From Protoeuglena noctilucae (taxonomy: Eukaryota), in the NCBI GenBank assembly GCA_958009085.1, contig OY253675.1, positions 186,001-250,000 on the forward strand: a stretch of 64,000 nt of DNA. Reading direction: 5' to 3'. The translations under genes and the position numbers were made by a program. The first letter of the stretch is position 1, and the number at the start of each line of letters is the position of its first letter. Of this stretch, positions 13,130-64,000 are shown one piece after another. The notes beneath the pieces are model-generated. The model did not search any database. It was not told the DNA's origin and worked only from the letters and a program-made list of their open reading frames with translations.

Positions 13130-13145
13130 GTGCGGAAGCCAAGCT

Positions 13146-19860: not shown

Positions 19861-20029
19861 GGAGGGAGGGGCATGCAGGGGTAGGGCATCTGCTTTGTGT
19901 TGGTAAAGCCACTGTGCTGCCGGAGCACAAGCGCAAGGATAAAGCCTTTGGTCTCAGAGCAAGCTTTGAAGCAAGACTTCCTCGTCAGTAGGATTGGCTG
20001 TGACTGACCCGTGCGCGGCCTCGTGAACA

Positions 20030-22262: not shown

Positions 22263-22956
22263 GTGAGGGCGTGGTGTGGGGGCGTGGAACAGAGTCAGCA
22301 TGTGCTGCAGCGTGTGGATGGGTGCGGGAGGTGGCAGTGGCAGTGGTGGGTATGGGCAGCCGCAAAAGAGTGGGTCTGAGTGCTGCTGACTGCGCCAATG
22401 AGTGCAGGCGGCCAAGGTACAAGCGCCGGCGCAGTGGTCTCCGTGAGGGGGGCGTGGCCAGGGCTCGCTTGGTCCATTCGGGTGGGTGGCGACCACAACC
22501 CCCGCCCACGGCTGGCGCGGGTGAGGCCGGGCTGTCTGGGCTGTCTGGCTTGTTGGACAGCCCACGGTGCTCAGCCCATGCGAGGCGTCGAATGGCGTCC
22601 CTCTAGCCGAAGAATGCAGCAGGATAGCTCAGCTCTGGCTTTGCCCTAACCTAGGTTTTACAGCTTTGAAGTCACTGGACGGCCGGCAAAAAGAAAGGGC
22701 CTCATGTTGATCATTTGATCCATTCGTGAAAATCTGCTGGCCATTTCGCCCAGGGTTTGCACGAACAACCGAGCCGGGTCCGAAATGGGCCCCGTGGCGG
22801 GTGAGGAGCCGTTTGCCGCGCTGGTTTCGCTGCTTTGCAAAGCAGGGTACCGCTCGCGTGCCCCAGCTTCCCCGACTCGCAAATCAATGTTGTTCCCCGC
22901 ACCCAGACGTCCCCTCCCGGGCGCGCGCGCCGTGGCGGTACCAGCGGACCCATGCG

Positions 22957-25900: not shown

Positions 25901-27402
25901 CACCTCACCCTCACCTCACCCCTGCACCTCACCCACCCCTGCACCTGACCCCATTCCCACCAACCCCCTTCTCCCCAGGTTGGTCCTATGGTGATGCGTG
26001 AGCCCGTGCTGATGGAGCTCCCCGTGGCGCCCATCGTGAGCCCGTCCAAGCAAACGGGCGACATCTGCGGCATCCTCGGATACGACTTCTTCCGCCGCGC
26101 CACCGTCGCGCTGCCACAGGTGCAGGTGAGAGGTGGAAGAGGCGTAGGGTTGGGATTTGGAACGGCTGTTTCCTTAGTTTGCTGATCACTCTGCCACAGA
26201 TGCAGGCGAGGAGTGCCTGGGATGGAATGGTGAGCGGACTTTCTCTTCGTGTAGCTAGTGTTACTAGTGTTGCTAGTGTAGTTAGTTGCGCGTCGTCCCA
26301 GTTGGGTGTACGATCAGCCACCCAATGTCCCACTCCATTCCCCTCCTCATCCCTCACCCCTCTCGCCGTCCCCAGAGCGCCCCTTCCTCCTCGCGACCCT
26401 CATCGATGGAGCCCCTGAGCAGCCCCGTGTCCCTCACGCTATGGGACCCCGTGCGCTTCTTGCCCCCACCCCACGTAGAGGGATGCTGGCAAGATGTCCA
26501 TATGATATCCAACCTCCCCCACGTACACGTGCGATTCCTCGCGCCGGACGACCGGGTGCGTGGACAAATGTGCCATGTATTATCTAGGGAGGCACGTGCG
26601 ACGGTGTTTGCAACATACGTGTCGTGCATCTCGTGTGCACGTGCGGTGGTGTGGGGATGGCGCATGCTGCACAGGCGGGGGCTTGCTGGGTCCCCGGCAG
26701 CATACAGCGACGGCTTTACACTTTTTCTGCAACAACGAGTGGCTTTGCTTTTAAACCTCGCGAGCCCCTTCATCTCAGAAGCAAGTGGATATGCTCGTAC
26801 GACTCACAATCCCCCGTCCTTCCCCCGTCCTTCCCTCATCACAGGAGCAAGTGGCTCTGTTCATGCTCGACTCCGGCGCCGGGAGCATCGACCTCATGTT
26901 CCACCCTCGGGCCGTGACGGAGCTGGGGCTGGCGTCCGTCGCGCAGTCGGCGCCCTCGCGGCTCATCAAGGGCGTCGGGCAGGACGTGGTCGTCAAGCAC
27001 AAGAGGTTCCCGTGGGCCGAGCTGGCCGGCAGGAGATTCCACGACATTGAGTGCCTCCTGGCCCAGGCGGATGGCTCTGGCCTCGACCTGTCGCTCTACA
27101 CGGCTGGCATTGTGTGCGGGGACCTCCTCTTCCGGTCCGAGCTCATCCTCGACTACCCGCGCAAACGCATCGCCTTCCTGCCCGTGCCGGGGGCCGCCGC
27201 GCCGCCGGAGTCGGCCGGGGCCGAGGCGCTGGCGGTGGGGCCGTTCGGCGTGGTGGGGCGCGCGAGTGATGCGGCCAGGGCGGGAGGCGGGGGGCGGCGG
27301 AGGCGCGCGGGAGGGCCTCTGGACGGGCTGCTGGGCGACGGGGAGTGGCTGCGGGGAGGTCGGCCGTGGAGCGGCGGGAACGGCGCGGGGAGGGGTCGTT
27401 GA
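22957..27402 (+). CDS. Protein with two retropepsin-like aspartyl-protease domains and a plastid transit-peptide-like N-terminus
   Basis: MLTIRAHVALRG...ARASA leader; GHVVVPVRINGELVGHFLVDTG|ASGLVI (D at 25383); GILGYDFFRRA; SNLPHVHV; LFMLDSGAG (D at 26869); GIVCGDLL..LILDYPRKRIAF. Internal exons are only partly resolved. Confidence 0.75.
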
Positions 27403-43912: not shown

Positions 43913-46534
43913 CTACTGCGCAGCCCTGGTACTGGCACCATGCGCGAAGGCGGCAGCTATGGATGCCAGGGAGCCTGCCAGAGTATCTTGGCCACGCATG
44001 GCATCGAGGCTGTTCGCGGCACTGCTGTTATCACTGCCGCGGTCGCCCTCCCACGCTGCTACCATGGACTGCACCAGCCTGTCCCACTCCCTCTCTACCG
44101 CCTCCCTTGCCGTCGCCAGCGCCGCCCCAGACCACCACCCTGCAGACGCAAAGCGACGAGGCTGCTCGGCAAGTTCCGCAAGCCATTCTGTCCCCACCTC
44201 GCCAGGACTCACTGCTTCCCAGTTCGCCATGTCTGTGGCGAGTAGACGTCCTGATACTCGCCCCTTCTCATCCATCATAGCAATACAAACCCACGGCCCC
44301 TCACCGGTCTGCGGCGAGTAGACGTCCTGAAACTCGAGCTGTGCCTCCCGGGTGCCAGGTGCCGCGACCTGCATCACGCGGCCCATGGGCACAAGGGCCG
44401 ACGTCCCGGACGGCAGCGCCGCCAGCGCCCAGAGCGCGCCCTCTGGGACAGTCGCGGCGGGCTCCATCGTCGCCCACGGCTGCCGGACGCGGCAGGCCAC
44501 CGGCTGCAGGAGAGCCGCGGAGGGGTCCCGGCGGGGATCGAACCCGCGACGCACGAGGGTGTCCGCGAAGGGCCCCGACAAGAAGCTGCGGGGGTGGAGA
44601 AGGGCAAGGAGGTTTGTTTCGAGAAACGAGCGGTTGTTTCATGCAACGAGCGCTGTAAAGGGAGAGACGGGAACACACTGAGAGATGGATACAACACAAC
44701 ACCCGTAAGCAAGGCACATGCTGATGCTGTCACATTAGCATCCGACAAGCCAACCACGGCGCTTGCCTGTAACACCACCTCCGGACGGCCTTCTCAATGG
44801 CCTCTCCCGGTAGATTGGCGGGCGCGAGTTCCGACAGCAGGTCAGCAGGAGTCCACACGGCGCAGCGCATGGCCAGGGAGCGCAGTCGGTCCGATGCTCG
44901 GTCAGCGTCGGCGTCGGTCCCTTGGGGCTTCGCGCCGCCCTCTTCTCCGTAAGCAGGGACCTGCATGGGACGGGGTGGGGAGGGCGCACGTTGGCAGGGC
45001 GACATCACGAGCGGTCATGGCTATTACAGCTCAGCCATGCAAGGGTGCGGTTGTATGTTGGATGTTTGTCGTCTACGGATCGCATGACCAGCATGCTAGC
45101 CTATTGTCTCCCATCCTCACACCTGCGGCACGTCCGGTGCCACGCGGCGCACGGCCTGCAACAACGCTCCCCACGGCTGACTGACGCCCTCCTCCTGCCC
45201 TTCCCTCTCGTTCGCACCCTGCATGTCCACGCATGGTCGAACGCGTCAGCATGAGAATGATGCAACGATGGGAGCGCGAGAAAACCGCAACCACCCCCTT
45301 CGGCAGTGCTTGGCAGCTTACACCGACATGTTCTGCATCGCAAGTCACAACCACCTAACCCGACCCTCTTCGCCACTATGTTCTTGCCATGCGACCCCTG
45401 CTACTGCAGCGCAAGCTGACACAGAGGCCGAGCAGAGGCACAGCCCAAAAGGCACGCACCCGGTCCTCCTGAGGCGCGGCATCGGACTTGCGGCCCTTCC
45501 TGCTGCGGCTCGCACGGACGCCCAGGCCCCACGACTCTTTCTCGAAGATATTCGAGGGATTGTCGATGCGGGAGAAGAGGGGAGGGATCATGCAGAGTGG
45601 CTCGTCGCTACTGCGGACAAGAGCGGAGGGTCACGGCCGTCGATTGCTCGCGCAGGGTGACTAGCGCTGGGCCGGTACGCGACATGACACAAGCATGAGA
45701 ACGCCACATCTTACATGTGCTCCTCAGTCTGCTCGTCGAACAGCGCGACACCTCACACCAGGCCGGCTGGGGACCCCTCGCTGCGCCCCTCGCCATTTGC
45801 AGCGACATCCCTGTCACCTGAGGAGATTTTCCGCGGCGTCTTCTCCGGCGTCCACGGGACTCCAATCGAGGAGATGCCCGTAGCCATTGCGTAGCGTACC
45901 CACGTTAGCGGGAGGGCGGTACTGGAAGTCAGCCATGTTGGGAAACGAATGGACGGATTCCACGACCGCAGCCACGCGCGAATTCTGCGAGCGCAGAGGA
46001 GACGGGCCGCGGCGGGCTTTGGCCCGGGGCTATGGCTCAGGAGGCTGTGCGAAGTCGCGACGTGACGTCGGCGAAGCAAATCCAAACGATGCGCTCCGCT
46101 CGCCTGGAAGCCGTCTCCCTCTCCCAATTGCAGCAGGAGTCCGGGATGCTTGACCCGCACGGAGAAGGCGGGGTGGCAGAAGGGGTCCTCCGGGCGGAAA
46201 CGGAGGGCCAGCATGTCCGTCTTGCCCGCGACGAGCGCGGAGATCGCGGCGGATCCGCCGAGCGCCTCTATGACTCTGCGCACAGCAGCGAGCGCGGGCT
46301 GAGGCGTCGTCAGCGGCGCGCGGAGTGCTCCCGTGCGCTCAGCTACAGTTACGGGGCCGAGTCTTTGCACCGACAAGAAGATAGAGCGCAGGATTGAAGT
46401 GATGGCATCACTTGCCTTTCCTTGTCGCGGACGTAGCCAGGGAAGAGCACTCCCACCACCTTGTTGCGCGGAATCCGCCCCTCGCTGCCGGGCCCGGGCC
46501 CCGCGCCTCCCGGGTCCCCCTCATTCCCCACCAT
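43913..46534 (-). CDS. GTF3C5: RNA polymerase III transcription factor IIIC subunit 5 (Tau95/Sfc1)
   Basis: VLFPGYVRDKER|VIEALGG...LALRFRPEDPFCHP, FPNMADFQY, PPLFSRID, AVWT, GPFADTLVRRGFDPRRDP. The 3' end is approximate. Confidence 0.82.
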
Positions 46535-46740
46535 CCAAGCCAACGGACAGGGACCTTTGCGAAGACTACGTCACAAGTGCCCACGAGCGTGGAAGGGCGT
46601 GTTGGCCGAGTTTCGTGAAGTCTCGTGTTGAAGCAAGACTAAACAGATCCTTGGCTGAGCAACGGACCACATCAATGCTACAGGAACGCAGGAACGCTTT
46701 GTGCACGATCATCAGCCGGACCTACCAGTATATCCGCCCG

Positions 46741-47910
46741 CTACCCCGCTGCCAGCAGGTGCGGGTGCGCGTGCCAGAATGCGTCCCTGATGATGTCCTC
46801 GTGCACCACCTCCACCGCGCTCTTCTGCCGCACGATGGGCTCCCCCCGCGAGCTGACCGCGTCCACCGCCCGCGTGACCCGCAGCACCACCGAGCCCCGG
46901 CGAAACATGGCCGGCAGCTCTGCGTAGTTTATCCCAAAGGTGGAGAACAGCAGCTCGTTTTTGAAATCACTCAGCGTCCCCTCCAGCACCTTCTGCGCCT
47001 CTTGCTGCGAGGAGGCAGAGTCGAGATCGTCAGGTCACGACCACACCGCGGCTGACACACGCACGTCACCTACAGGGGCGAGTGGCTGGCAACTGCTCGC
47101 CTTGGTCTTTCCCGACTTGACCAGGCACCAGAAGCACGTGTTGTACAGGTTGTTGATGTGGGTGTCCACCTGCCGCCAGCTCAGGTAGTCCCGGAGCGTC
47201 CGGTCGGAAGGGTACAGCACAGCACGTCCGTCGAACTGGGGAGGGTAGAGCAGCTGCGGGTAACAACAGCGGGCGGGGAGTGTGAGGAAGAGCTGTCAGC
47301 TGCGCTGCTGCAGCTCCAGCACAGGCGCCTGTCCACAGCATGGCGGTGGGACACTGTGAGGGACGCGACATGCAATGCTTGCCTTGCTGTCCGGAAAGAA
47401 CTCGGGCCACAGGAAAACGTACTGCCCCGCGAAGGCGCTGGCGAAGACGCTGACCAGCTTGTACCCACGCCTGCCCCAGAGCTTTGAGTCCTTGCTCAGC
47501 ACGAAGCTGCAGGGGCGGACCGTAAGCTGCTGCTTTCGTAACTGCTCAACAGCGTAGCGAGGCGAGCGGCAGCGTGGGAAAAGATCGTCACCTGTATTCG
47601 TCCGATTCTCCGAATGCGATTCGGATGTCGGGGAACTCCTTGGCAAGCGCCACCGCGCACGCGTTCATCAGGTCGAGCGCCCGCGCGTCGTTGGGCTTCT
47701 CAAAGCCGTGCTCATCGCTGAGAAGGATACTAAGGAGGGTACGGATGAAGTTGTGGACATCGACACGCCGCGGCGGTGCCGAGGGAGGCAGCGGCAGCAC
47801 CTGAAGCGCGTGAAGCCCCGTCCGTCGAGGCGGATGACGACCCAGCATCCCGGGAGCAACGGTACGTCCTGCTCGTAGGCTTTCACGTACTCGTACTGGC
47901 TGTTCGCCAT
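46741..47910 (-). CDS. THG1: tRNA-His guanylyltransferase, 5 exons
   Basis: [98 protein letters not shown]. Confidence 0.96.
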
Positions 47911-48331
47911 GCGGCGGCGCACGCAGGCCTCGCGACAGGAGCCGTGGCGCGGTGGGAAGGAGCCTACCCCTTTTAATCACGTCCGACGTGTATATCGACC
48001 GATACTCCCAGTTCCCGAGCAATTCACATCGATGCGATCATGTACAGCAGAGCTTTCGTCACAGACATGGCCGCCAGGACGGGAAAACGTGCATCGTCAG
48101 TGGCTGCCAGAGCACCCCTGGTTTGCACTCGACTCTGGGCGATGACCCCGACGCACTCTCGCTGATGTTCAGAAACCAACTTCTCTCTGCGTTTTCGGCG
48201 TTTCTGACCACATCCTCGCGTCTTGCAGGTCGTAAAGAAAGGGTCAGTTGCCGTCGGCAACGTGTGCCCGCACAGAGCCCTGCGGCGGGGGTCGGACGCA
48301 GGCCTTTGGCTGTAATACGCGAGCTTCGTTC

Positions 48332-50011
48332 ATGAGCACCGCTGCTTCGGCACGGCCGGCGTGTCGGTGCGCCCATGCTGCGGCTCTTCCCCGTCGCACG
48401 CGGCTGGGGTTCCCGGGGGCGCCCAAGCGCTGCGTCCGGCGGCGCATCACGAACACGCGGGAGGAGGTATGGCCGGACGGAGCCCCCGAGGACCAGGTCG
48501 AGGAGGGGACGACGGTGACGAGGTTCCCCAGTATGTCCAAGTTTAACGGCCCTTTGGAGCGCAAGGTCTCCAGGTGCGCGCGCGTCAACGTCAGATTCGA
48601 CTTTTCCATACCGTATTCATTCAGCCGCTGTTCCTGCCGCCACAACGGGGCACCGGGGACGGCGCGCGGAGCCCATCCCTGCGCAGGACCTTCGAGGACG
48701 CCATTTTCGACGAGCGTATCAGCCTTGAGGAGATGGAGTTCTGGTTTAACCCGAGCGAACCTGGTGAGAGGCAGGATGGGCCTTGGCAGCCATAGCGGCC
48801 GCGCCGATTGCGTCTGAGCTTGCGATAATAGGGATGCGGTCTGTTCCGACGCCACGCCGGCCCTAATGCGCCCGCAGATGAGCAGGAGTACCTCGAGTAC
48901 ATTCCGGAGGATCTGGAGGAGAACCCTTTCATGGTTGCGGACAACCCGGGGGAGAGCCGGACGTCGTTGGCGGAGCTGCAGGTGCGGTTTCCATGCGCCC
49001 CGCCTTTTGCGCTTCCTTCGGGCCGTTATCCTGGCCCGCAATGACGTATTTCCTAGCCTTTTGCGCCTACAGGTGGGCGCGGTGGTCCGCGGGCGCGTCA
49101 CGGAGGTGCACGTGTACCACGGGCTCAAAGTCGACATTGGGGCCGAGTACGACGCGGTGGTGCCCATCGAGAAGGACGCGTTCACGGAAATGGGCAAGGC
49201 CGGAGAAATCCCGGACATATTTGGGCGCCTCTTCCGCCGCGAGGTCGACGTGCGCTTGGCTCAGATTCACGACCCCCGTCGGTTCCGGTGAGGGATGCCG
49301 GTGTTTACGGGGCATACGGATGGGTCTAGCGATGTCTTTTGATGTTCTTCTGATATACTGCTATCCTGGGAGCTGCCTTTCGCTCGTCTTTTCCTTCTTT
49401 TGGCCGCCACGTGTCGTTGCAGTAACACCCATCGCCCCACCCTGCCCCGCAGCTGGCCGGTGGTGGCGTCGCTGCAGGGCGACTACAACATCCCCGGCCT
49501 CATCGACGCCACGACGTACGAGGTCCCTATCTTTTTGTTCCCGGGAGATGAGCTGACGGAGGTGGCCAAGGAGACGGGGCGGCCTTATGAGCCACTCAAG
49601 TTCTACGGGGACCTGCAGCGGGCCGAGCCGGACATCGAGGTGAGCGAGATGGAGAGAGTGGCGGGTTCCCATTTCCCATGCGGTGGGTGAGTAGCACGTG
49701 AGAAGCACGAGGTGTAGCATGCGAGGGTGGGTTACAATGGGACTGTACTGGTGCCTGACTTAGTGGCAGTACCACTGACCAAGTGTAATGACAAAGACTG
49801 GGTTGCCACTCCCAGCTCTGCCTGGCAGCTACGCTCCCATTCGTCACGCTTTGTGGGGGTCTCTCCATTCTGTCACGCTTGCGCGGTCATCTCGATCACG
49901 CAGGACCTGGAGGGCAACACGCCGCCGACGGAGGAGGAGGAGATGTTGGCGATTATGGACGATCTCACTTATGACATTGCCAGGTCCATGAGGAGCCCCA
50001 CGTACCGATGA
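48332..50011 (+). CDS. Plastid S1-domain protein resembling pTAC10/PAP3
   Basis: Transit-peptide-like N-terminus; S1 fold GRVTEVHVYHGLKVDIGAEYDAVVPI...VDVRLAQIHDPRRFR|WPV parallels pTAC10 HLYQGAFVDIGGVHDGWVPI...RDPYRFRFPI (recalled). Confidence 0.62.
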
Positions 50012-50315
50012 ACCTCTCGCCCATCTGCTGTGCATGTTTGCGTCGCGGACCTTTTCGTGTTGTCTCGTTAGGGAAGGCTTGCTTGTTACATGGCCGTCTC
50101 ATCGTTTCAGACCTGAAAGCCCGTTGCAGCGAGCGGCAGTGCGCTCGCCTTCAGCAGCACAGTCGCCGTTTCAAAAACGAATGTTTCTGCAGAGGCGCTG
50201 CTGGATCGCAACCCGTCTGCTACCCCACGCTTCGCCCTGCTGTCTGCTTAGGGCGTCGCTCGCAGCACTGCCTCTCGTCGCTCGCTGCACTGTGCTACGC
50301 TCGCGAAGCGTCTCC

Positions 50316-53300
50316 TCACGCGCCCACCACCTTGGCGGCCAGGTTCAGCTGCTGCTTGCTCATGAGGATGCGCTGGAAGGCGAAGAGGGCGTTGCGCTGC
50401 ACCTCGGGGTCGTGGTGCTCCAGCTTCCTGCGTGGAGAGACAGGCACGAAGAGGTTAAGCATGGTGAAACGAGCACAGACAGGTTAACGGACACAGGCAC
50501 GGGGTCGTGGTGCTCCAGCTTCCTGCGTGGAGAAACGGGCACAGATAGCTTACTTACTAACAAAGACGCAGGCACGGGGTCGTGATATGCTTAAGCTGTA
50601 ATGATCGACATTAGATATTGCTTTCCTTCATCCCACATTCTCGCTACCACCGCCCTCGTCCCCACCACCCACCCTTCCACCCCTCACCTCATCACCACCT
50701 CCTTGGCCCCCAGCTCGTGCGCCAGCTGCCTCCCCTTGGGGTGGTGCTGGATGAACTCGGCCAGGTCGTGGCACCCCACCGCCAGTGTAGTGGCGTCGCT
50801 CGACTGCTCCAGCAGCTTCATCAGGGCGCGGAAGACGAGGTAGTCCTGCGTATAAGGGAAACGGGTCATTGATTCTCCTATCTCCCTCGGCCCATCCTTG
50901 CTATGTTGTCCAGTTGGTCATCCCCACCCCCACCCCGCCCATCCTCGCCTCGTCATCAAAGTGGTTCACTTCTGCAGCCATCACTACGCCACTATTACCA
51001 CCCCCACTCCACTCCCCCACCCCATCCTCGCCTTGTCGTCGAAGTGGTTGACGTTCTGCAGCCAGAACTGCGGCTCGGTGTGGATGGGCGTCCAGGCCAG
51101 GCTCCCCGACAGCACCTCGCGCTTGTACTTGTCGAATGACGACAGCTCATGACCACGCTCCTCCATCTCAGTCCTGGATAGCAGGAGAGATGGGAGCGGT
51201 TGGCGTGAGTGGGGTGGGGGTGGAGGGGAGATGGTGAGTGGGGTGGTGGGCATGGGTGGGCTGGTGGGCATGGTTGGGGTGGAGAGCATGGGTGGGGTGG
51301 TGAGCGTGAATGGGAAGGTGAGCGTGAGTGGGGTGCAAAAGTAGCATAGTGGCACTTGTACTCACTTGAGGTAGTCGAGGGCGTTGGTGATCTCCTCGTC
51401 CCCACACTCCTGCTCCATCTTGGTCGCCACCACCTTCTTCAGGCCAGCCTCCACTGCAAGAACCATGAGAGGGAAAAGGTCAGAAAATCACTCAGCCTCT
51501 ACCAGCCCAGCATCCCTACATTCACTCGCCCATATCCATAGGTGTAAATCATCTTATAACACATAAACACGAATCCACTCGCTCACCCATGGCTTCCAGG
51601 AAGCGGTGGTCCCCGTGCCCCGCCATGCTCTTGAGGGCCAGCACGCACACGCGTGCCACCTTGACGCTCTGGGCATAGCGAAGGAGGTCCACCAGCTTGC
51701 CCACCACGCCCGCCGCCACCTGGGGGGAGACGAAGGCGAACAGGCTCAGTGATTGTTACTATATTAGTAACACAATCGATGGAAAGCGATGCTGGTCCAC
51801 TGGGGCGTGAAAGGTCTGATGAGAGAGGGCAGTTTAACTACCATCTCCAACCAACCAAGCATGCAATAGCACAAGTAGCAAAACTCCCAGCAGCATGAGC
51901 CCCTCACCATGGCCTCGGCTGCCTTCTTGTAGAAGCTGAGCTGCCAGTAGCACATCGACGCCTCGTACTGGAGCTGCACCGACGCCCGCGTCTGGTCGGC
52001 GCGGCGGGGGTTGGCCACGAGGGGCGCCAGCAGCTGCACGACGCCCTTGCGCACGCACAGGTCCCGCGCGTCCACCTCCTTCAGCACCAGCGCCAGGCAG
52101 TGGGCGGCCACGGCGTGAGAGCGCTGGGCGTCTGTGGGGCGCCTGGGGAGGGGGCGGGGGGTGTGGGGATGGGATGGGGGAGTGTGGGGAGGTGACGGGG
52201 GGTGCGGAGGGATGCGTGGGACATGCGGGGAGGCGGCAGGGTGCAGTGTACGGGTGCACCGCCCACGAGCCAACGCGAACACTAGGTCAGGAGGGGCAGC
52301 TATGACACGGGCGAGAGCCGGCGCATAAGTTTGCAAACAACTTGCCTCAATTGGTTGGCCACGAAGTCCACGAACGCAGACAGGACGGCGTCCGGCAACG
52401 CGCTCTTCACTTCCGAGGACGTGGACGCGCCCGAAATGAGGTCCGTGCTCGCGGGGCCCGAGAGAGGGACCGTGCGGTCCGGGCGCGTGTCGATCAGGAT
52501 CGCGAGGACTGCAGGGACGAGGGAGCGGCGGCGGGCGTGGATCGCGCGATGGGCGGAGGGGCCAGCCAGTGCATCTCCGCAAGCCGCTCGCCCCGCCGCG
52601 CACCGACGGCCGCCAGCTCCTGGGTGGTCCAGTCGGCCCGCTGCAGGAGCTTCAGGAGCTGCGTGTACGGGTTGAGCGACGACAGCGCGTGCACGTAGCT
52701 CGCGTGCGCGTGCGTCCCCGACGGCGCCATCTCCAGCATCTCCCGCAGCAGCGCCAGCGTGTACTGCACCGTCTCCTCCTTGGTCACATTGCGCAGCACG
52801 TTGAAAAAGGTCTCGACATACGCCTTGCCGTCCTGCGGGAACCAGGGACGGAGGTGGAGGAGGCGCAAACGGACCATGACCCCGCCCGTGCCAATCGGCG
52901 ATGGCCGCGCCCCCGGCACGTCATCCGGAAAACGGAAGTTCGTTCCTCAATTCCACGGAAATCCACGGGCGCCCAGAAAAAACGCCCTCCAAGCCATCGC
53001 GCACGCAAACGCACGCTGCGAGGGGTCTGCTCGGCCCTGCGCACCTTCGCCAGGACGTCCGCCTTGGTCACGGGGTTCTTCTTGTCGTATCTCCGGATGC
53101 GCTCCAGGTCCCGATCCGTGATGAGCCGCGCCTGCATGTAGGTCTCCCACGGGACATCGCGCTCGAGGACCTTGAGGTAGGAGCCTGCGGGAGGGTGGGG
53201 GCCGCGCGGGGCAGTCAGGGCGATGTCGGGGAGGGTTCTCTAGCGGATTACGTCCGCCGCTGGGCCGGCGCGGCGCGGGCGCGGCAGCGCGAGCGAGGTT

Positions 53301-53556
53301 GCCCTTAGGCGCGAGCCAGGCCAGGGCCGGCCGCGCCGGGCGCCAGGGGACAAAACTCGGCGCGCGAGTCGGCCAAGCGATTGTCGAGCATGAAAACGAC
53401 CTTGCGAAGGAAAGCATCGCCCGCAGCTCCGCCCCGGTGCGCCGCGATGGCCGGGATGGCCGAGGGGCGCGCGTTCGCCACGCAAATCTGCCCTCCCGGC
53501 TCCCGCTGCCCACCTGCGCCCTCCGTTGCCCCACCATCCGGGTATGTCGGCGCCAT
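50316..53556 (-). CDS. VHA-H: V-type proton ATPase subunit H
   Basis: VLERDVPWETYMQARLI, TKEETVQYTLAL, SVQLQYEASMCYWQLSF, SSFDKYKREVLSGSLAWTPIH..FWLQN, TLAVGCHDLAEFIQHHPKGR, DPEVQRNALFAFQRIL. The first exon is tentative. Confidence 0.94.
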
Positions 53557-53916
53557 GGCGGGACGGGACCGCCCCCCGAGAGCCTCCCTGCCCACTCCAG
53601 GCCTAACGCAGCGAGCTGGCCCCCAGGACGCGGCCGATGGGTCCACCGAGACGGCGGGGCGTGGCAGCTCGAGGCGGTCGTGTCGCACAAGCGGCGCGGA
53701 CGCGGGCCTCGTCCGCTTTCTCTGCCGGAGCGGGTGCCGGTCCAGGTCCCCAGGGTAATTGGCGCGGCGGGAAAAGCGGGCGCGACCGGCTGGCGACGAC
53801 AGACTGCTGCGCGGAAACTATAATCGTAAATCGGATCTCTGAACATCGATTCGGCGTCTGGTTTCCTCTGGACGAAGCGGCGGGCCCGTCGGCGCTGGGC
53901 GACTCTCGCGCGGGCG

Positions 53917-56900
53917 ATGTCGCCGCTGTTCGACGTGGCTCACCACGAGACGGTGGTGGTGCTTGACTATGGGAGCCAATACACGCAGCTCATCGGGCGC
54001 AGGATCCGCGAGATGGGCGTGCTGTCCGTCATGCTGCCGGGCGACTGCGACATGGCGAGGGCCGCCCGCCGCGACGGCTGCGCGCGCCGCGCTTGGCACC
54101 TGCGCTCCTTTCGTCACTCGCGTCTCCCACGGTCGCAGGACCGCATCCTGGAGCACAAGCCGCACGTGGTGGTGCTGTCGGGCGGCCCGAACTCCATTCA
54201 CGAGAAGGCGAGCGCCGCGGCGGCCTGCGCCCGTCCACGCCGCGCCTGCGTCGTCATCTTTCCCTCCCGCGCCCTTTGCCGCCCGCCGCCAGCCTCCGCG
54301 CGCCCCGCCGCGTCCCCCGCAGGGCTCCCCAAGGGTCCCCGAGGGATTCTTCGCGTGGGCCGCGGACAACCGCATTCCGGTGCTGGGAATCTGCTACGGG
54401 ATGCAGATGCTCGTGCACTTACTCGGGGGCAACGTCAAGGCCGCGGAGGGGCGCGGGGAGTACGGGAAGATGGACGTGGACTGCGTGAGCGATTCGACGC
54501 TCTACGGCCCCGACCTCGCGGGGTCCCAGACGGTGTGGATGTCCCACGGCGACGAGGCGGATCGACTCCCGGAGGGTTTCCGCACCGTCGCGGTGTCCCG
54601 GTGCGCTTTTTGATTGTGCCGAGCAGCGCTACACAGAGCCGCAACCCGTGGCGGTCTCTCCTGACCCGCCCCACCCCGCCTCGTCCCTGCCCCGCAGCCA
54701 GGGCGCGATCGTGGGTATCGAGGATCCCTCTCGCAAGTTCTTCGGCATCCAGTATCACCCTGAGGTGATGCACTCGCTCCGTGGCCGTGAGACCATCAAG
54801 CGCTTCCTGTTCGACATCTGCGGCCTCCGCGGCGACTGGTCGATGCGGAGCGTTCTCGATGAGCAGCTCGAGGCCATCCGCACGCAGGCGAGGGGGGCAG
54901 GGTTGGGTGGGGGTGGCTGGGTGGGGTGGGGCTGGGTGGGGTGGTGCATGGCGGCGGTGTGTGGTGGTGTGAACACCATGGCAAGGTGCTCTGTCCTTCA
55001 AAGCGCCTCCATGTCGTTGCGTTGATTACTACTTCCGTATTGTAGACCGCTGCAACCGATGCCCCTGCCCCCATCCGCTCCCATCCGCTCCCCTTCCTAG
55101 GTCGGTCCGAACGACCACGCCATCTGCGCGCTGTCCGGGGGTGTCGACAGCTGCGTGGCCGCCACGCTCGTGCACCAGGTCAGTCGCCGTCACTCGGGTG
55201 CTATCCACTTGCTCATTGCCATAATTTGTCAGTATGCCATCAACTGTTTTGCTACACCTGCACATAAGCACCCCTCATCGCATCTCTTACCCCACAACCT
55301 CCCCTCACAAGTGGTCAGCGACCGCCTTCACTGCGTGTCTATTAACAACAACAACGAAGTCTCTCATATCCCCATATCCCCCGCAGGTCCTTGGCGACCG
55401 CCTGCACTGCGTGTTTGCAGACAACAACGTATCAATATCACTAGTGCCCCCTCACCCCATTCCTCCAGGTGCTTGGCGACCGCCTGCACTGCGTGTTTGT
55501 GGACAACGGCCTGCTGCGCCTGGACGAGGCTGAGCGCGTGGGGCGGGTGTTCAAGGAGAAGCTGCACCTTCCCGTGACGATTGTGGATGCGTCGGAGAGG
55601 TTCCTGTCCAAGCTGGCGGGGGTGGTGGACCCGGAGAGGAAGAGGAAGGTGAGGAGTGGAGAGGTGGGGTGGGGTGATGTGAGAGGCGAGGAGGGCCCAG
55701 CTCATTGCCGCGTTGAACACCCCACTCACCCGCCCACCCACACACTCCCGCTCTCTCTCCCTCCCCCACACCCTCATATCATCAGAACCAACCTCACCAC
55801 CATGTTCACACCCCACAGATCATCAAAACCTCATCAACACCCCCTCACACACCTCCCCCCCAGATCATCAAATATCAACCCCACCTCTCTCTCTCTCAGA
55901 TCATCGGTGCCGAGTTCATCGCCGTCTTCAAAGACGCCGCGCACGACATCGAGGCACGCCTGGGCACCCACCCCCGCTTCCTCATCCAGGGCACGCTGTA
56001 TCCCGACGTGATCGAATCGTGCCCTCCCCCCGGCAAGGGCAAGCACTCGCACACCATCAAGAGCCACCACAACGTGGGGGGGCTGCCGGAGGAGCTGGGG
56101 TTCGAACTGATTGAGCCCTTGAAGGAATTGTTCAAGGACGAAGTGCGGGAGATGGGAAGGCTCATCGGGGGTGAGAGATGGGGGGGGTGGGGTGTGGGGT
56201 GGTAGTGGGTGTGTGGGAGATGGGGAGCGGCATCGGGGGTGAGTGGGTATGGGTGGGTGTGGGGTGGTGATGGGGTGGGTGTGGGTAGTGAGCGTGTGGG
56301 TGTGTGGGAGATGGGAGGGTCACCCTCCCAACCCCCCTCCCCCAGTCCCTGACGAGTTCATCCGCCGCCACCCCTTCCCCGGCCCCGGCCTGGCGGTGCG
56401 TGCTCTGGGCGACGTCACCGACGGCACGAAGCTGAACGTGCTGCGGCGCGCCGACGAGATCTTCGTCAACTGCATCCGGGAGTACGGACTGTACGACGAG
56501 ATATGGCAGGCGTTTGCGGTGTTCCTGCCCATTAAGACGGTGGGGGTGCAGGGGGACCAGCGGACGCACTCGTACGTGATTGGGCTGAGGTGAGACGGAT
56601 GGGAGATGGAGGAAGATGAAGGGAAAGGGGGTTTGAGTAGTGGGTTGAGGTGAGAGGGGGGAAGTGGAGGGAGATGGGGGTGAGTCGTGAGCTGAGGTAA
56701 GAGGGTGACCAGCGGACCCAGCCACTCGTGCGTCATTGGGCTCAGGTGAGAGACGAGAGGGGGAAGGAAGGGGGGTGGGGGGTGGGGGTGGGCTGAGGTC
56801 AGAGATGAATCAGCTCACGTTGTCTTGCACCCCACCTCACGTTCCCGTCCTCTCCACCGCATCTTTTCCCACCTCACCACCCCCAAACCGCCCCCAACCC

Positions 56901-57086
56901 AAACCTATCCTCATCACCCCCTGCAGGGCCGTGACATCGTCGGACGGCATGACTGCCGACTGGTACGAGTTTTCTGGCGCCTTCCTGCGTGACGTATCCA
57001 CGCGCATCTGCAACCAGATACGTGAGGTGAACCGCGTCTGCTACGACATCACCTCCAAGCCGCCAGGGACCATCGAGTGGGAGTGA
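53917..57086 (+). CDS. guaA: GMP synthase (glutamine-hydrolysing), 9 exons
   Basis: [99 protein letters not shown]. Confidence 0.97.
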
Positions 57087-57533
57087 AGGGGGATGAGGGG
57101 AGGGAGTGGGGTAACGGGGGATGAGGGGGCGTGAGACGAGGGCCTTTTCTGTGGGCTCTGTGCTTTGTGGATGTTAAGCGACGGCAAGCGAGCCGGTTGA
57201 AGTTTGAAGCGGAGTGGACGTGCTGCGGTATCTCCTACATACATGAGAACGTGCCACACCCATTACACCACTCGCTCTCCAACACCCTTGTCCCTTCCTT
57301 CAATCACTCCCTCTTCTACCCCATATCAATATGCCAGCCTCCCACCCCACGTCGCTATGCCATCCCCACTTCCATCGCCCCCCTGTGACACCCACCCTGA
57401 CCTCTTCTACCCCACAACACTACGGCGATGCCATCCCCTCTTCCTTAACCACCCTGTGACACCCCTCCTCTTCCCCCCTCGTCCTCGCCTCTTCTTACCC
57501 ACACACGACCATGCCAGCCTTCCAATCCCACAC

Positions 57534-59578
57534 CTATGCCATCCCCTCCTCCTTGGCCACCCTGTGACACCCATCATCATCCCCCCTGGCCCTCACTTTG
57601 GTGGGACACACGCTGAAGCAGGGGCTGGTGGAGATGGGGTCCTGGGACTGCAGACAGACAACAACAAACACCACTGTTAACAATCACGCGAGCACGGATA
57701 TATAGTAACTGCCTGCTACTCATCCAAGCTTATCGCCGTCGACAGTAAAAGTGCGAGTCAGTGTCAACAAATCTCGCAGTTGCTACTTCTAGCACACTCA
57801 CCCGCGTCCGTTCCCACTAGCCGCCCCTGCTCTCACAAAACACAATACACAACACTCCAGTCACACACTGGGGTTCTGAATGCACTCGGTCACCCTCACC
57901 AGTGCGGGCGGTGTTTTGCCAAATGCGAACTGGCACGAGTAGTCATCGTAGTTGGGCGTCATGGTGAGGGGCAGTCCCATGTGACGGGAGAAGAAGAGCT
58001 GCGTGGGGACCTTGCAGCTGTTGATGCACACGGATGCGCAGCCGCCCTGCTCCAGGTATCTGTGGGTGGTAATAGAGAGAGGGAGGGGTGGCAGTGAAAG
58101 GGGTTCAACTGGTGGCTGCGGTATCTCGTGGCCGCGGCAGTGAGGAAAGAGTGGCAATTATGGTTGCAACCCCATGTCAATCACACCCCATCCCTCTCAT
58201 CACTCTCACCTGCACCTCTGCACCAGCAGCCCGTGTCCCTTGCCCACCTCCCCCGAGTCCACCACCACATCGTTCACTGCCAGGGGACCCATCAGCCACT
58301 CGCAGGTGAGCTGGGTCGCAAGTGCGTTCAAACGGGCGGAGAGGCCGGGCATGGGGCGGGAGAAGAGGGCTGCGGGGAGAGGGGAGTGGGGAGGGATATG
58401 GGTGGTGGGGCGCACTTAGTAACAACTGCTGATAGCTGCCGGTGGCTAACAGTGCGCCGGTCAATCCCGAACATGATGTTGCTTGGTCCCGCACATGCTA
58501 TCAGACGAACACCAATCATGCGATCACAGCCATGCCCTTCCAGACATATGCCATCTCAATTACACGATTTCAATCACCCATTCCCACCCCCGCCCTCGCC
58601 TGCGAATGCCACGGGCAGCCACGAGGGGAAGAGGCTCAGAAGGATTCCTACGGTGGCCTCGTGGGTCTCACGGGGGTCGCCGTACTTGGCATTCAAACGC
58701 CTGCGAGTGGGGGTAATGAAATCGGAAATCATGGATTGTATATATGTGATATGGTCATGTGTTGTGTCTTTGCACCCACCCCCTTGTACCACAGTCACTC
58801 ATCACCGACTCACTTGGTCAGCTCAATCACCGCCTCATATCCCTGCTTGGCCGTCCGCTCCCCCAGCGCCGCCTCCAGTTTCCGAATGAACAGTCCCATG
58901 ATGGCCGCATTCCAAGGCTTAGCATCGATGGTAGAGTAGTCGGGGGCGGGGGTGGGGGCGAGGGCGGACGGGGCGGCGGGGCCGGCGTCATAAAAACCAT
59001 CACTAGTGAGTCTGGGGGGGTAGATGGGGTGGGATGGGCTGGTGAGAAGATGAGTAGTAGATACGGTATTGCTAACTACACACAGAAACCCTATCGGGTG
59101 AGCCGGTGCGGGAATTAATGGGATGGGGTGGTGAGCAGATGAGTAACAACACAAATGGTGCACTACATGAGCAGATGTGAGAAATCTGCATAGATGGGGC
59201 GGTGACGGGCAGGTGACACGATAGCCGGCCAAGCGCGCCTGTCATAAATTGGGCACATTGCGTGCAACCGCCAGCTGCATGAGTGACGCGTGGGCTGCGG
59301 TGCTGACGCGTGGGCCATCAGTCATGTGCACCGCTATCAGCTAGCAGCCATGTCGGAAATCGCGGTGGCTAGATGCTGGATTGCGCATCTTGAAAGGGCC
59401 GAGGACGCTCTATGACCCTCTATAAAACCCTTTACATGCTGTGTGCACCGGCACTGTCATGCCATGCAAGGGTTGCCGGTGGCTTACGAAACCATCCGTA
59501 CATCGATATCCCCGCCCTGCAGCGGACACGCAGCCTCGCGTGTGCGGCCTGCCGGCCCTGCCCCTGCTGCACCGTCAT
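57534..59578 (-). CDS. Beta-carotene isomerase D27-like protein, plastid
   Basis: GYEAVIEL, LSLFPSWLP, TCEWLMGP, QRCRYLE.GGCASVCINSCKVPTQ.FF...MGLPLTMTPNYDDYSCQFAFGKTPP, DPISTSPCFSVCP. First exon (59578-59502) and final stop are tentative. Confidence 0.88.
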
Positions 59579-59790
59579 CGCCACCCCTGCCACACCGCGA
59601 CTACCTCCCAGTTCAGATTTAAACCCCAACTCCACCCTCACTCCAGCCCCTGCCACACCACCGCCACCCTCACTCCAGCCCCTGCCACACCGTCACCACC
59701 ACCCCTCCCGCCACCCAGTTCAGATTCCAACCGTTAACCCACCCTCACTCCAGCCCCTGCCACACTCTCACTCCAGCCCCACCGCCACCC

Positions 59791-60807
59791 TCATTCCAGC
59801 CCCCGCCACATGTCCTCCACGAACCTCCGCGTCCGCTCCCGCCTCTCCGCCTCCAATTCATCGCGCAAGAAACCCCTCGCCTCGCCAGATAGAGACGACG
59901 ACGCCCTACCTCGACCCCTCTCCTCCTCAGCTGCTACGGTATCGCTCATCGTCATCCCCTTTCCCTCAGTCACGGTATCGCTTCCCTCCGCTCTAGGGCT
60001 GCTCATCCTCACCCCTTCGCCCGCTCCTCTGCCCTCACACCCCCTGCCACCTCCACCCAGCTGCTCCCTGCCCTGACACCCCTCGCTAAACGTGCTTTCA
60101 ATGCCATGCTGTGGAGCAGCCACGGCGTGCCACGGCAATGCCACGGTGACTGCCAATGCTGCGGCAAAGGGGAGTGGGTGCATGAGCATATGCACGAGTG
60201 AATGCATCAGCATATAGTGGGACCACAACCATCGCCAGTCGCAGCTCTCACCTAACGCGGCGACCGCCACGAAGGCAGGGGTTGCCTTGTGCATCCGCTC
60301 CCGCTTCCACCCATCGCCGCACTCGCACGCGCGACCGCCTCTGTCAGTCTCGTGTGCCATCCGTGCTTGTAGGCAGCCCCCACATCGACCAGCGCCCGCC
60401 CTGGGCTCGCGACCGGGGCCGATGGGGCCGTGGCACGGGGTGCTGAAAACGATTTGCAAAAATGGATTGTGAAAAAGGAAGGACGTGCCAAATGCGGCGG
60501 TCTGTCCGCGTGTGTAAAAAGGAAACGGCCCCGCTACATCCGGGGTGCTAGGGCTCTCACATCGGGAACGCCGTGAAGCGATCATGGCACAGTCGACTCG
60601 CCTGGCTGGGTCTGGCTCCGTCCATGGCGTCTGGACCTTGGCCTCCCACGGGTCTATCGGGGCCACAGATGAGCACACCACGGCGACGCGGCGGGCGGCG
60701 CGGGGGCCCGCGCAAGGACGGGAGGAGCATGGAACATCCGGGCGCCTCGTGCGCCCGTCGAGCGGGCGACTCCCCGCCGCGCTCGCCACCTGCGCGGATC
60801 TGTGCAT
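59791..60807 (-). CDS. Hypothetical protein with plastid transit-peptide-like N-terminus
   Basis: MHRSAQVASAAGSRP...RRVAVVCSS leader and a coding-like terminal block EARGFLRDELEAERRERTRRFVEDMWRGLE*. Internal exons unresolved. Confidence 0.45.
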   Translation of the reverse strand: MHRSAQVASAAGSRPLDGRTRRPDVPCSSRPCAGPRAARRVAVVCSSVAPIDPWEAKVQTPWTEPDPARRVDCAMIASRRSRCESPSTPDVAGPFPFYTRGQTAAFGTSFLFHNPFLQIVFSTPCHGPIGPGREPRAGAGRCGGCLQARMAHETDRGGRACECGDGWKRERMHKATPAFVAVAALGESCDWRWLWSHYMLMHSLVHMLMHPLPFAAALAVTVALPWHAVAAPQHGIESTFSEGCQGREQLGGGGRGCEGRGAGEGVRMSSPRAEGSDTVTEGKGMTMSDTVAAEEERGRGRASSSLSGEARGFLRDELEAERRERTRRFVEDMWRGLE

Positions 60808-61308
60808 GTGAATACTCCCGACGCACTGCGGAGGATCCGCCCTGCGGCCAAAGAACGTCCCTGCGGCCCGTTGCCAAGTGGACGTCGCGAGCCAGGCGAC
60901 CGCAGGCCCGCTGGCGACCCGAGCTCCTATCGCTTACCGTGGTACTGACGTCGCTCTCTAGAAATCTCGCTTGCGAATCGCGCTGTCCTCCTAGGGCGCG
61001 CGGAGGCCGCAGAAGAAGTCTGGCAGGCGTGAAACGACGATCTCAGCCGAACAGAAACTCGCACTGCGCTTGCATTGTACCAGATGAACAGGCAGGCAAC
61101 AGAGTCAACAGGCGGCAGCCTCACATGAAGCAGAGCAGCTTTTCTGACGTGACTGTTGCCAGCGTCTTGGATTCCTTCCCAACCAGCGCCTCCCTTCGGC
61201 GCCCTGCATTCCGCTCGACATTGTCGAACTGCGAGTCGCCTTGAATCGGTCTCGACTCGACCCATCGCCCCCGTCTCCGCGCGCGGAGCCCACGCGTCGC
61301 TCGCGGCC

Positions 61309-64000
61309 ATGAGCCCCCCGGACGAGCCGCCTCCGGACGGCTTCGAGCCCGATGTCGTCGTGGAAGGGAAGCTACGGAGCGAGCAAGTCAACGCAGCGTC
61401 CGAGCGGGGCAACGTGGACGCCATGGACAAGCTGCAGGCCGACCTCGGCTTCGACTTCCAGCCAGAGGCGAGGGCGCCGGCGGCCCACGGACGCCCCCGT
61501 CGTGCGTGCGCAAGCATGCATGAGAACGCGAGCATACTTGCGGATGGGTCCCGGACGCGTCGGGGGGCCGGAGACGTTTCCGCGGTGCGTCCCGCCCCGC
61601 CGTTTCGAACGCGTAGCGTCGCCCTGCTGTGCTACAGGCGCAGCGCCCGCCATGGACGCTCGGCAAGTGGTTTCGGTGCCTGAGCAACGCTCTGACGGGA
61701 CTCAACAAAACGCTCGTCGCCGGGGATCTGCCCAACGACGGGGCGGGTGCGCATGCGCAGGGTGGCACGTGTCCGCTGCGCCCGCCACGGCCGCGCGGCC
61801 CCCCGTCACGCCGCCGCACTTGCTTGCAGATATCGATCACGAGAAGCTCGTCGGGTGGATGCGCGACCACCTCATGAAGCGCCTCAACGCGCTGAAGGTC
61901 GTGTACGCGGTGGGGGGCGGGTGGACGAATGACGCGCGCATCTGGGTGGAGATTTCGGAGCCCAACACACCGGAGCCCTGCCAGTCGGGCCCGCTGCGGG
62001 GCCTTTACCAGTGCTTCCCGTCCGTCTCCATCTGTCCAAAGACCGGTGAGGCGTTTGCCTGCGTAATTCAGCCGTCCCCTGCCTTTGACACGCTCGCGCG
62101 CAGGACCAATCGATGACCGCGATGTTGTATTACTTCATCCGTCCCGTCCCGCGCCGCAGGGAATCTGTCCAAGCTGGCCGTGCCGCGCAAGGTGCACCCG
62201 GACGTCGCCCGCAAAGCTGCCGACGCGATTAAGCGCAAGATTGAGACGGGAGAGGACACAGGTGCGGCGCCGCAGTCGCTGAGAGGCCTCTCGGCGCGCG
62301 CGCATCCCCAGCCTGCACCGACGCCCGTGCTGGCAGCTGCGGGGCACAGCACGCGACCTGCACCACACCCTGGCCGTCCCTAACCCTCACCACACACATT
62401 CCAGGCTCCACCTGCGGGCCATGAGCATCACAAGTCACAAGAACCACAGTAAGAAAGCCAGTCAACCCCCGCTGTGATGTCAGCTTCTGCGTGCCCTGCC
62501 GCAGTGATCGTCAAGCGCGACCGGGGCGTGGGCTACAAGGAGCGAACGGAGCACATGCTGGCCGCGATGGACGTCCGGCACCTGTCGTTCGTGCGTTCCG
62601 GGGCGCGTGCTGCGCCTGGATTGAAGGACGCTGCACAGGGCAGCGGCGGGCGCGTGCGTGGCGGCGATGGGGCAGACCAGGAGTTGGCGGAGGCTCAGTC
62701 TGTGGTCGACACTGGGATGGAGGCGCTGACGGTGGAGGATGGGCCGGGAGCGACGGTGCGTGCGGGGGAGGGGAATGTGTGGGGGTAGGGGCAGTGTGGG
62801 GTGCAGGGGCTTGTGTGGCAGGTCTTTTGTTTTGCAAACGTCTTACGTCTCATGCGATGTGCTCCCCATGGCGTCTCCATGCCCGCAACCCCCGCAGTCC
62901 GACGAGCCGTCCTGCAACAGGCGCCCGGACAGCAAGGGAGCCTGGGGCGGTGGCGATGGCGCGGTGTGCGGGGAGCTCACCATCCCAAGCGACAAGGACG
63001 CACACAGGGACTCACACAAAGACTCAAACAGGGACTTACACAGGGATGCACACCGCGGCGCTGCCGGGGCTGGCGCGCACGATGGGGCGGTGTCGACCGC
63101 GACCCCCGCCGCCCCCGCCGCGCCCGTCGCACCTGCCCGGGAGGAGCGGACGCACGCCCCGCCGTCACTCGGTGCCGCCACCAGTGATGCGGACGCCGAC
63201 CACGCCTCGCCGGAGCTCCCGGAGCTCAAGAAGCGGCGCATGCCGGACGGGGCGCCACAAGCGTCATGCTCTGTGCCTGAGAGGGACGCGGCGGGGGCGC
63301 CACGGCCGCCGCTGCAGGCCATCCAGGTGCGGCAGAGGTAGTTTATTGGCAGAGATGGTCACTGAGAGTGTCCCTGCGATGGGTTCTGGCAAGAACCTGC
63401 TCTCTCACCAACGCTCAGTCTCACTCCAGCCCTTCTCCCCGCAGCCGTCTGCGTCCGAGGCCCCCGGCAACGTGGTGCGCGCGCGGGGCGTGACCATGTA
63501 CGTGGGCCCTTCACGTGTGCCCGCGCCCAGCGCCCCCACGTCCCGGCAGGAGCTGGCGGGGAGCCACGGGGCCACGATGTGGGTGCGGGGCCGCCCCGGC
63601 TCAGCGGCGAACGAGGTGGGTTGCACAGAGATAGCATTCACATGGTTGGGGCACGGTACAATCCATGCGCATGGGAGCGCTCCCGTGCTGCTGTGTCCAA
63701 CCTGGTCAGGCGTCGTCATCAACGTCCCCATCTCTACGTCCGTTTGGCCCAGCCATACTGTCTCTGTCTCTCGTGCCGTCTCTTTACCATTGATGACCAT
63801 CAACGATCGATGACATCGGCACGTGCCCCTTGCAGGCCTGCCGCCCAGAGGGCATGGATGTGGACGCAGCACCCGCGGCGAAGAAGGGGCCGGAGCTGAA
63901 GACGGAAGAGGAGGCGAGGGCCGCGGCTGATGGTGGCAGGCCGCGCGTTGTGCGTATGTGTGCACGCCGAACCCCTCATGCACACTCGCCATGTCCTCAT
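61309..64000 (+). CDS. Hypothetical multi-exon protein (continues past the right edge)
   Basis: Phase-consistent exons MSPPDEPP..FQPE|AQRPPWTLGKW..|DIDHEKLVGW..CPKT|GNLSKL..|VIVKRDRG..|SDEPS..|PSASE..|ACRPE..EEE|gcgagg. No family recognised. Confidence 0.6.

Follow-up and report, generated by a model that had tools for sequence, protein, structure and literature searches.

Several exon boundaries in a 64,000-nucleotide stretch of the genome of Protoeuglena noctilucae (contig OY253675.1; "the window" below means this whole stretch) stand next to degenerate copies of themselves in the adjoining non-coding DNA. An acceptor with its exon start recurs upstream within the intron, an exon end with its donor recurs downstream within the intron, and the last codons with the stop codon recur in the 3′ untranslated region (UTR). 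We call these copies echoes. An initial annotation had described them at many boundaries of four consecutive genes, VHA-H, GMP synthase (GMPS), a D27-like gene and a supposed gene at 59791-60807, and had named two possible causes: a high local tandem-duplication rate combined with selection, or copying directed at junctions. The locus raises the question of whether the echoes are real and whether they call for a junction-directed process. Our results show that they are real. They probably follow from the frequency of small tandem duplications, the shortness of the introns and selection on the mRNA.

An edge test was performed with 27 introns (54 boundaries) at 48-61 kb, each intron being RNA-supported or curated. 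The query was 30 exon-only bases on each side, the target was the near 250 nucleotides (nt) of the own intron, and alignment of each query with the 26 other introns provided the null. The own-intron copy ranked first for 6 of the 54 boundaries (2 expected), and the null maximum was exceeded by at least 8 at five of the 54. The scores at these five, each given with its best null, were 46 and 17 for the VHA-H intron 9 acceptor, 34 and 15 for the VHA-H intron 8 donor, 55 and 23 for the GMPS intron 5 acceptor, 31 and 23 for the GMPS intron 7 donor, and 31 and 16 for the GMPS intron 8 donor. The donor of D27-like intron 2 was marginal (25 against a null maximum of 23). With exon-interior controls, taken 61-90 nt from the edge, none of 42 queries exceeded the null by at least 8 and two ranked first (1.6 expected). 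No echoes were found at the ten boundaries of the gene at 48.2-50.2 kb, nor among the boundaries tested in the 5′ halves of VHA-H and GMPS. Thus, the echoes are real, but they concern only about one boundary in eight, which is not "many", and are less systematic than first described.

In the echo alignments, 9-41 nt of exon are copied along with the splice signal, at 72-95% identity and in one to four copies. The copies lie head-to-tail on the same strand, at offsets of 38-152 nt and with short and regular spacing. Tandem Repeats Finder arrays lie at 56143-56285 and 56603-56705. In VHA-H, the following elements were aligned:

50405-50447, minus strand: authentic acceptor of VHA-H intron 9 with the first 23 nt of the last exon (boundary 50427/50428; RNA joint 50426>50687 in three runs).
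50500-50542, minus strand: echo of this acceptor, identical to 50405-50447 at 41 of 43 positions in the alignment.
50565-50584, minus strand: partial third copy of this acceptor (alignment).
51008-51072, minus strand: authentic donor (GC type) of VHA-H intron 8, preceded by 41 nt of exon end (open reading frame (ORF) continuity, Pfam and alignment).
50921-50988, minus strand: echo of this donor, exon end with GCGAGG, 55/69 in the alignment with 51008-51072.
50882-50918, minus strand: further echo of this donor, 27/37 in the alignment.

The intron 9 acceptor with the first part of its exon is unit 1 of a 95/75-nt array. In GMPS, echoes were found at two acceptors and two donors, and a weak one at the stop codon:

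55466-55507, plus strand: authentic acceptor of GMPS intron 5 with the start of exon 6 (ORF-consistent gene model and exon translation).
55370-55425 (49/56) and 55303-55349 (37/47), plus strand: echoes of this acceptor including 39 nt of exon 6, in units of 76-82 nt.
55770-55910, plus strand: short, weak echoes of the GMPS intron 6 acceptor, with 17-nt units at 55811 and 55856 (below the alignment-score threshold).
56143-56195, plus strand: donor of GMPS intron 7 (exon end 56143-56170); an RNA contig joins 56169 to 56345.
56211-56266 (45/56) and 56302-56322 (19/22), plus strand: echoes of this donor in the alignment with 56143-56195.
56550-56614, plus strand: donor of GMPS intron 8 (exon end 56550-56589); an RNA exon piece ends at 56587.
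56702-56769 (55/70), 56641-56670 (26/32), 56789-56807 (18/21) and 56688-56705, plus strand: echoes of this donor (alignment).
57080-57100 and 57108-57128, plus strand: last GMPS codons with the stop codon and their weak 28-nt echo, 86% of 21 nt (below the score-28 threshold).

The intron 6 echoes are of the CCCACAGATCATCAAA type, are spaced by 41-45 nt and precede the authentic acceptor at 55899/55900, where an RNA piece begins at 55898. GT is present in every intron 8 donor echo. Accordingly, upstream copying of acceptor and exon start (VHA-H intron 9, GMPS intron 5) and downstream copying of exon end and donor (VHA-H intron 8, GMPS introns 7 and 8) were confirmed as first proposed. Copying of the last codons and stop codon into the 3′ UTR was clear in the D27-like gene:

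57536-57594, minus strand: last 19 codons and stop codon of the D27-like gene, which form the first array unit (copy at 57428-57486, 86% of 59 nt).
57310-57594, minus strand: array of 71-108-nt units, all 3′ UTR after the first unit, with further units down to 57310.

As the 3′ UTR array has the final 19 codons as its first unit, the C-terminal tail of the D27-like protein may have been a repeat unit before it became coding. The last exon (57534-57647, minus strand) lies outside the Pfam D27-like_C domain. Another likeness was observed within this gene: the interior of exon 5 (PTQLFFSRHM) resembles the acceptor and start of exon 4 (cag|ALFSRPM). The two segments (57978-58009 and 58350-58380, minus strand) are offset by 372 nt and share 81% identity over 32 nt, which may reflect either an ancient internal duplication or coincidence.

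The supposed gene at 59791-60807, for which a stop-codon echo had also been claimed, does not exist as such. In three runs, RNA contigs connect 59011 with 60602, and the frame from the ATG at 60807 passes this joint into the D27-like domain. In the ORF that reads through into the intron, the GC contents of the first, second and third codon positions are flat (0.62/0.59/0.68), whereas third positions of real exons reach 0.74-0.96; a Pfam search of this ORF gave no match. The supposed gene is D27-like exon 1 with part of a 1590-nt intron. The features concerned are as follows:

59012-60601, minus strand: first intron of the D27-like gene, 1590 nt, GC-AG (RNA joint 59011>60602 in three runs).
59557-59810, minus strand: purely intronic tandem array with periods of 23-32 nt and 107-118 nt (repeat search and alignment).

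Since 59791-60807 is not a gene, the array at 59557-59810 is intronic and not a stop-codon echo. The echoes at 48-61 kb therefore affect three genes, not four.

The gene models were based on RNA contigs, ORFs and Pfam. The window is GC-rich eukaryotic DNA (about 65% GC) with numerous short exons and introns. The genes studied have 5-9 introns each, which sets them apart from Pelagomonas, for which 0.45 introns per gene are reported (PMC9481584); a search with a VHA-H exon matched only generic armadillo-repeat clusters. Nearly all sampled words of a 10-kb stretch were found in four runs of one organism and in several marine metagenomes, and four metatranscriptomes contain 30-37% of these words, which is about the exonic share. 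Contigs of three metatranscriptome (RNA) runs (X9, X10 and X12) and of one run from another study (X1) were compared with the window over 44001-64000. X1 was taken as DNA because introns and spacers are covered at even depth. RNA joints define eight of the nine VHA-H introns and all five D27-like introns (both genes on the minus strand), as well as introns of the plus-strand gene at 48.2-50.2 kb. VHA-H intron 8 (50846-51031, GC-AG) was set by ORF continuity; further support comes from the two flanking exons, which match positions 1-39 and 41-91 of Pfam V-ATPase_H_C. The eight GMPS introns were set by GT/GC-AG and an open frame, and are consistent with RNA exon pieces at 54321-54599, 55898-56169 and 56345-56587. 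Pfam matches were V-ATPase_H_N and _C for VHA-H, GATase and GMP_synt_C for GMPS, D27-like_C, and GTP_EFTU for an exon of EFL.

GC donors (GCGAG or GCAAG) occur in 7 of the 27 introns at 48-61 kb (50846, 52143, 54055, 54208, 54888, 58370 and 59012). Three of these introns are seen directly in RNA joints and the others are supported by ORF and Pfam continuity. In most eukaryotes, GC donors make up about 1%, so that the proportion here is far higher. A single RNA contig leads from the plus-strand gene at 48.2-50.2 kb into the minus-strand VHA-H (window positions 48170-50687). Thus, the convergent 3′ ends of the two genes overlap or abut.

Tandem copies in a genome sequence might be assembly errors, in which repeats are collapsed or stuttered or alleles are set one after the other. 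The X1 contigs are indeed interrupted at the 95-nt repeat (50434-50504). However, they show no differences from the window over 44001-50434 and 50504-64000, and the break is bridged by unitigs of 121 nt and 34 nt. The 34-nt unitig is common to both 95-nt copies and has a depth of 123.8 against 48.5-63 for its neighbours, which is about twofold. The copies are also inexact, with 72-95% identity. The echoes are thus confirmed in independent data as genuine sequence, and an artefact of assembly has next to no probability.

The RNA contigs also indicate which copy is spliced. At all of the 15 joints examined, the best-supported 15 of 51, the exon-adjacent sites are used, including 50426>50687, with support from up to three runs; rare isoforms are lost in contigs. 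The splice signals themselves are well kept in the echoes: GT or GC is present in 10 of the 11 donor copies that cover the site, and AG in all acceptor copies. This speaks for the possibility that the copies are kept for a function in splicing, whether as decoys, alternative sites, poison exons or enhancers. Nevertheless, the identity falls to 72%, the extent of the copy varies between sites, and the authentic sites alone appear in the joints examined. We regard a splicing role as very improbable.

Whether boundaries are duplicated preferentially was examined by comparison with intron interiors. Among 132 intronic 30-mer tiles, 31 ranked first (4.9 expected) and 10 exceeded the null maximum by at least 8. 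By this measure, duplication is no rarer in intron interiors (10 of 132 tiles) than at exon edges (5 of 54). Over the whole window, 40 rows of direct repeats, a few of them redundant, were obtained at offsets of 12-400 nt with scores of at least 28, whereas a null of far chunks gave 7 rows in about four times the search space, which scales to about 1.75 expected. Purely intronic arrays lie at 51190-51335, 59030/59119, 59557-59810, 23916/24006 and 25800/25917.

In a geometry test, a duplication of length d was placed randomly among the survivable positions around an intron of pre-duplication length I0, and was counted as spanning when it took in at least 10 nt of exon. At the four large junction echoes, the chance of spanning was 0.86, 0.83, 0.66 and 0.50; at the three intronic loci it was 0.15, 0.10 and 0.03. 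Boundary-spanning duplications were observed at 4 of these 7 loci, against 3.1 expected (P=0.35). The repeats at offsets above 200 nt (50656/50918, 54061/54278, 56757/57075 and 57978/58350) were left out of the duplication loci because they link different introns or exons, are compositional or are of unclear origin. The initial annotation had itself held that boundary duplications no commoner than expected from general intronic duplication would refute junction-directed copying. This is what both comparisons gave, at low statistical power, and in the absence of a boundary excess a junction-directed process is not needed. The alternative of a high local duplication rate with selection fits the data. 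Its corollary that only boundary-spanning copies survive does not hold, since arrays confined to introns or UTRs are no less common.

Several observations weigh against ordinary tandem duplication as a sufficient account. Part of the scoring intronic tiles sit in echo arrays and hence depend on the echoes. When present-day intron lengths are used in the geometry test, which is conservative, 2.2 of 7 are expected (P=0.11). The sample is small, with seven duplication loci in one 64-kb window, and is compatible with a two-fold preference for junctions. Single junctions have been hit repeatedly, with four copies at GMPS intron 8 and three units at GMPS intron 5, and the unit lengths cluster at 66-95 nt. 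These repeated events, the clustering and the introns with G-rich 5′ and C-rich 3′ parts could reflect growth nucleated at splice sites. In addition, minor splicing at echo sites is possible, given that the joints examined were the 15 best-supported of 51.

A process that favours junctions would consist of breaks or slippage at the G-rich (5′) and C-rich (3′) tracts near splice sites, for example at R-loops or G-quadruplexes, and introns would then grow mainly from their ends, carrying copies of their junctions. The junctions of GMPS introns 5, 7 and 8 were duplicated repeatedly, the distal introns have a G-rich 5′ half and a C-rich 3′ half with sense-strand skews up to +0.93 and -0.88, and arrays begin directly after donors at 54892-54944 and 4257-4405; the conservative form of the geometry test points the same way. 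On the other side, edges are duplicated no more often than interiors, the main geometry test gave no excess, the intronic array at 59557-59810 lies far from the junctions of its 1590-nt intron, and an existing repeat is expected to be re-duplicated without any targeting. We therefore consider junction-favoured duplication unlikely. It is equally doubtful that introns of CpG-depleted gene bodies grow mainly at their ends, through repeated duplication of junctions at a break- or slippage-prone donor side (G-rich) and acceptor side (C-rich). If true, this would amount to a junction-favoured mutational process, possibly linked to transcription or methylation, which would build introns with G-rich 5′ and C-rich 3′ ends and seed intact pseudo splice sites genome-wide.

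Under the preferred explanation, ordinary tandem duplication filtered by selection, small duplications with units of about 38-152 nt, often re-duplicated into minisatellite-like arrays of 2-5 copies, would occur throughout the non-coding DNA of the CpG-poor gene parts. Since the introns measure only about 100-340 nt, a duplication of 70-150 nt is more likely than not to span an exon edge. Such a duplication would be harmless: the exon-adjacent site stays in place and the extra copy falls inside the intron or after the stop codon, so that the mRNA is unchanged. We infer that selection would purge out-of-frame duplications lying wholly within exons. Boundary echoes would also stay recognisable longer than intron-only repeats, because the exon half of the pair is fixed by protein selection. 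As a result, introns would lengthen from their ends and be supplied with intact-looking pseudo splice sites. The underlying mutations may arise by slippage or by break repair with fill-in synthesis. Pair identities of 72-95% and several nested units indicate repeated events over time.

The repeats in coding sequence fit the proposed frame filter. Six short-range repeats lie wholly or partly in labelled coding sequence, and their offsets (69, 99, 195, 201, 186 and 90) are all divisible by 3; this agreement is weak because several are old ankyrin repeats. The labels came from a 7-state coding hidden Markov model trained on four genes, which missed several D27-like exons and read through GC-rich 5′ introns. 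It was used solely as a rough coding label for repeats and never for boundary counts.

The duplications concentrate in the CpG-poor distal parts of genes. The echo introns had a median ratio of observed to expected CpG (CpG o/e) of 0.48, and the 20 remaining introns one of 0.885 (P=0.007, one-sided Mann-Whitney test); when the echo group was restricted to the five strong cases, the medians were 0.68 and 0.835 (P=0.056). The number of repeat hits per kb declines with CpG o/e (Spearman -0.43, P=0.0004), and 18 of 33 hits fall in eight one-kb bins with CpG o/e below 0.8. In the divergent VHA-H/GMPS pair (50300-57100), the introns of the common 5′ zone have a GC content of 0.67-0.83 and a CpG o/e of 0.92-1.38. 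The distal introns have values of 0.46-0.67 and 0.25-0.8, respectively, and in their sense strand G abounds at the 5′ end and C at the 3′ end. The association may be due to methylation, to promoter distance or to the repeats as such.

Three introns fold much more stably than their dinucleotide shuffles: GMPS intron 6 (55649-55899, z=-4.6), D27-like intron 4 (58060-58209, z=-3.7) and GMPS intron 4 (54888-55100, z=-3.2). In these introns, the G-rich 5′ part pairs with the C-rich 3′ part. Strong folding was absent in most introns examined and was not specific to the echo introns.

Five more echoes were found outside the tested 48-61 kb, one in EFL, three at 25-27 kb and one at 44.3 kb:

4600 and 4638-4661, plus strand: EFL donor (exon ends at 4608) and its echo, 21/24; the neighbouring exon matches GTP_EFTU.
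25353-25469, plus strand: donor echo (25353/25423) in a gene at 23.5-27.3 kb, 40/50, with 37 nt of exon (gene model by ORF and GT-AG only).
26108-26210, plus strand: donor echo (26111/26191), 18/20; GTGAG has become GCGAG in the copy (gene model by ORF and GT-AG only).
26767-26862, plus strand: acceptor echo (26767/26833), 31/41, with 29 nt of exon (gene model by ORF and GT-AG only).
44231-44336, minus strand: donor echo (44231/44307), 28/30 of the exon end, with a copy that lacks GT (RNA exon piece 44304-44585).

The short EFL echo had been noted in the initial annotation and was recovered, as a weaker case (21/24). The annotation had placed the phenomenon at 50400-59810; echoes do occur there, but they also extend beyond it. 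A dispersed duplication was also observed in the window: a region of an ankyrin-repeat gene is present at 12538-15756 and 20027-22269, about 82-85% identical over about 2.2 kb.

The nearest precedent is the minisatellite in intron 7 (IVS7) of human F7 (2006, PMC1557585). Its first unit spans the boundary of exon 7 and intron 7, and its downstream pseudo-donors are silent. In both systems, head-to-tail units begin with one that carries the exon end and donor, and downstream units have intact pseudo 5′ splice sites. In F7, the most upstream, authentic donor is used; in the RNA joints examined here, the 15 best-supported of 51, exon-adjacent sites are used. A feature of the F7 type, one unit with the authentic exon edge and splice site, was found here with 9-41 nt of exon and GT/GC or AG. 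Unlike in F7, many junctions of several genes are involved, acceptors and stop codons are copied too, and the units are longer and degenerate (72-95% identical). Variation in copy number among individuals is a further feature of the F7 type. The echoes are thus a known kind of event at unusual density. Small tandem duplications can also form where DNA breaks undergo Pol alpha-primase fill-in and end joining (Schimmel et al. 2021, PMC8355091). This is a possible route to tandem duplications of tens of bases and here serves as a mechanistic lead only.

Tandem duplication is, moreover, an accepted route to new introns, documented in Drosophila (Lehmann et al. 2010, PMC2891723). The echo introns might thus have been born by tandem duplication of an exon with an AG|GT proto-splice site (Rogers model), the echoes being remains of that birth. 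As in the cases of intron gain or intron sliding reported there, by Hellsten et al. (2011, PMC3265369) and for potato RdRp (PMC4974935), a tandem duplication of exon and splice signal is neutralised by splicing, and GMPS intron 7 without its duplicated units would be only about 60 nt long. In the reported cases, however, the duplication makes the intron and the intron length equals the duplication length, whereas here existing introns are lengthened. This signature, together with exon-end copies at the intron termini, was not found: the offsets (38-152 nt) are below the intron lengths (111-337 nt), copies of the upstream exon lie in mid-intron and not at the intron 3′ end, and the downstream exon start is copied at no intron 5′ end. 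Removal of the copies leaves plausible ancestral introns of 60-130 nt. An origin of the echo introns by duplication is accordingly improbable. Intron growth and cryptic splice sites, two consequences that the initial annotation had drawn, are supported by the sequence, but the third, intron gain, is not.

Introners (Gozashti et al. 2022, PMC9860276; Huff et al. 2016 via PMC9481584) also add intronic DNA in marine algae, at genomic scale and with the target duplicated at the intron ends. They are, however, dispersed and multi-copy with short target-site duplications, whereas the extra DNA here copies its own flank. A self-comparison of the 64 kb, a small sample, revealed no dispersed intron family, and far intron-intron matches were only G-rich low-complexity sequence at 73-74%. 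Introner elements are thus ruled out within the window. A search of metagenome contigs with GMPS exon 7 gave 80 loci, the best with 77% amino-acid identity, and no close relative. The literature covered, which lacked most subscription journals and is weak evidence of novelty, contained single-gene precedents and no genome-scale report of algal junction echoes.

Present evidence calls for no new mechanism. The window demonstrates, with RNA support, that short introns lengthen by copying their own edges while the mRNA is unchanged. This copying scatters intact-looking donors and acceptors through the introns and, with a copy at about one boundary in eight over 13 kb, it is unusually dense. Given a full genome and strain data, the organism could serve to measure how often small tandem duplications occur, how pseudo-sites decay and by which rules splice sites are chosen.

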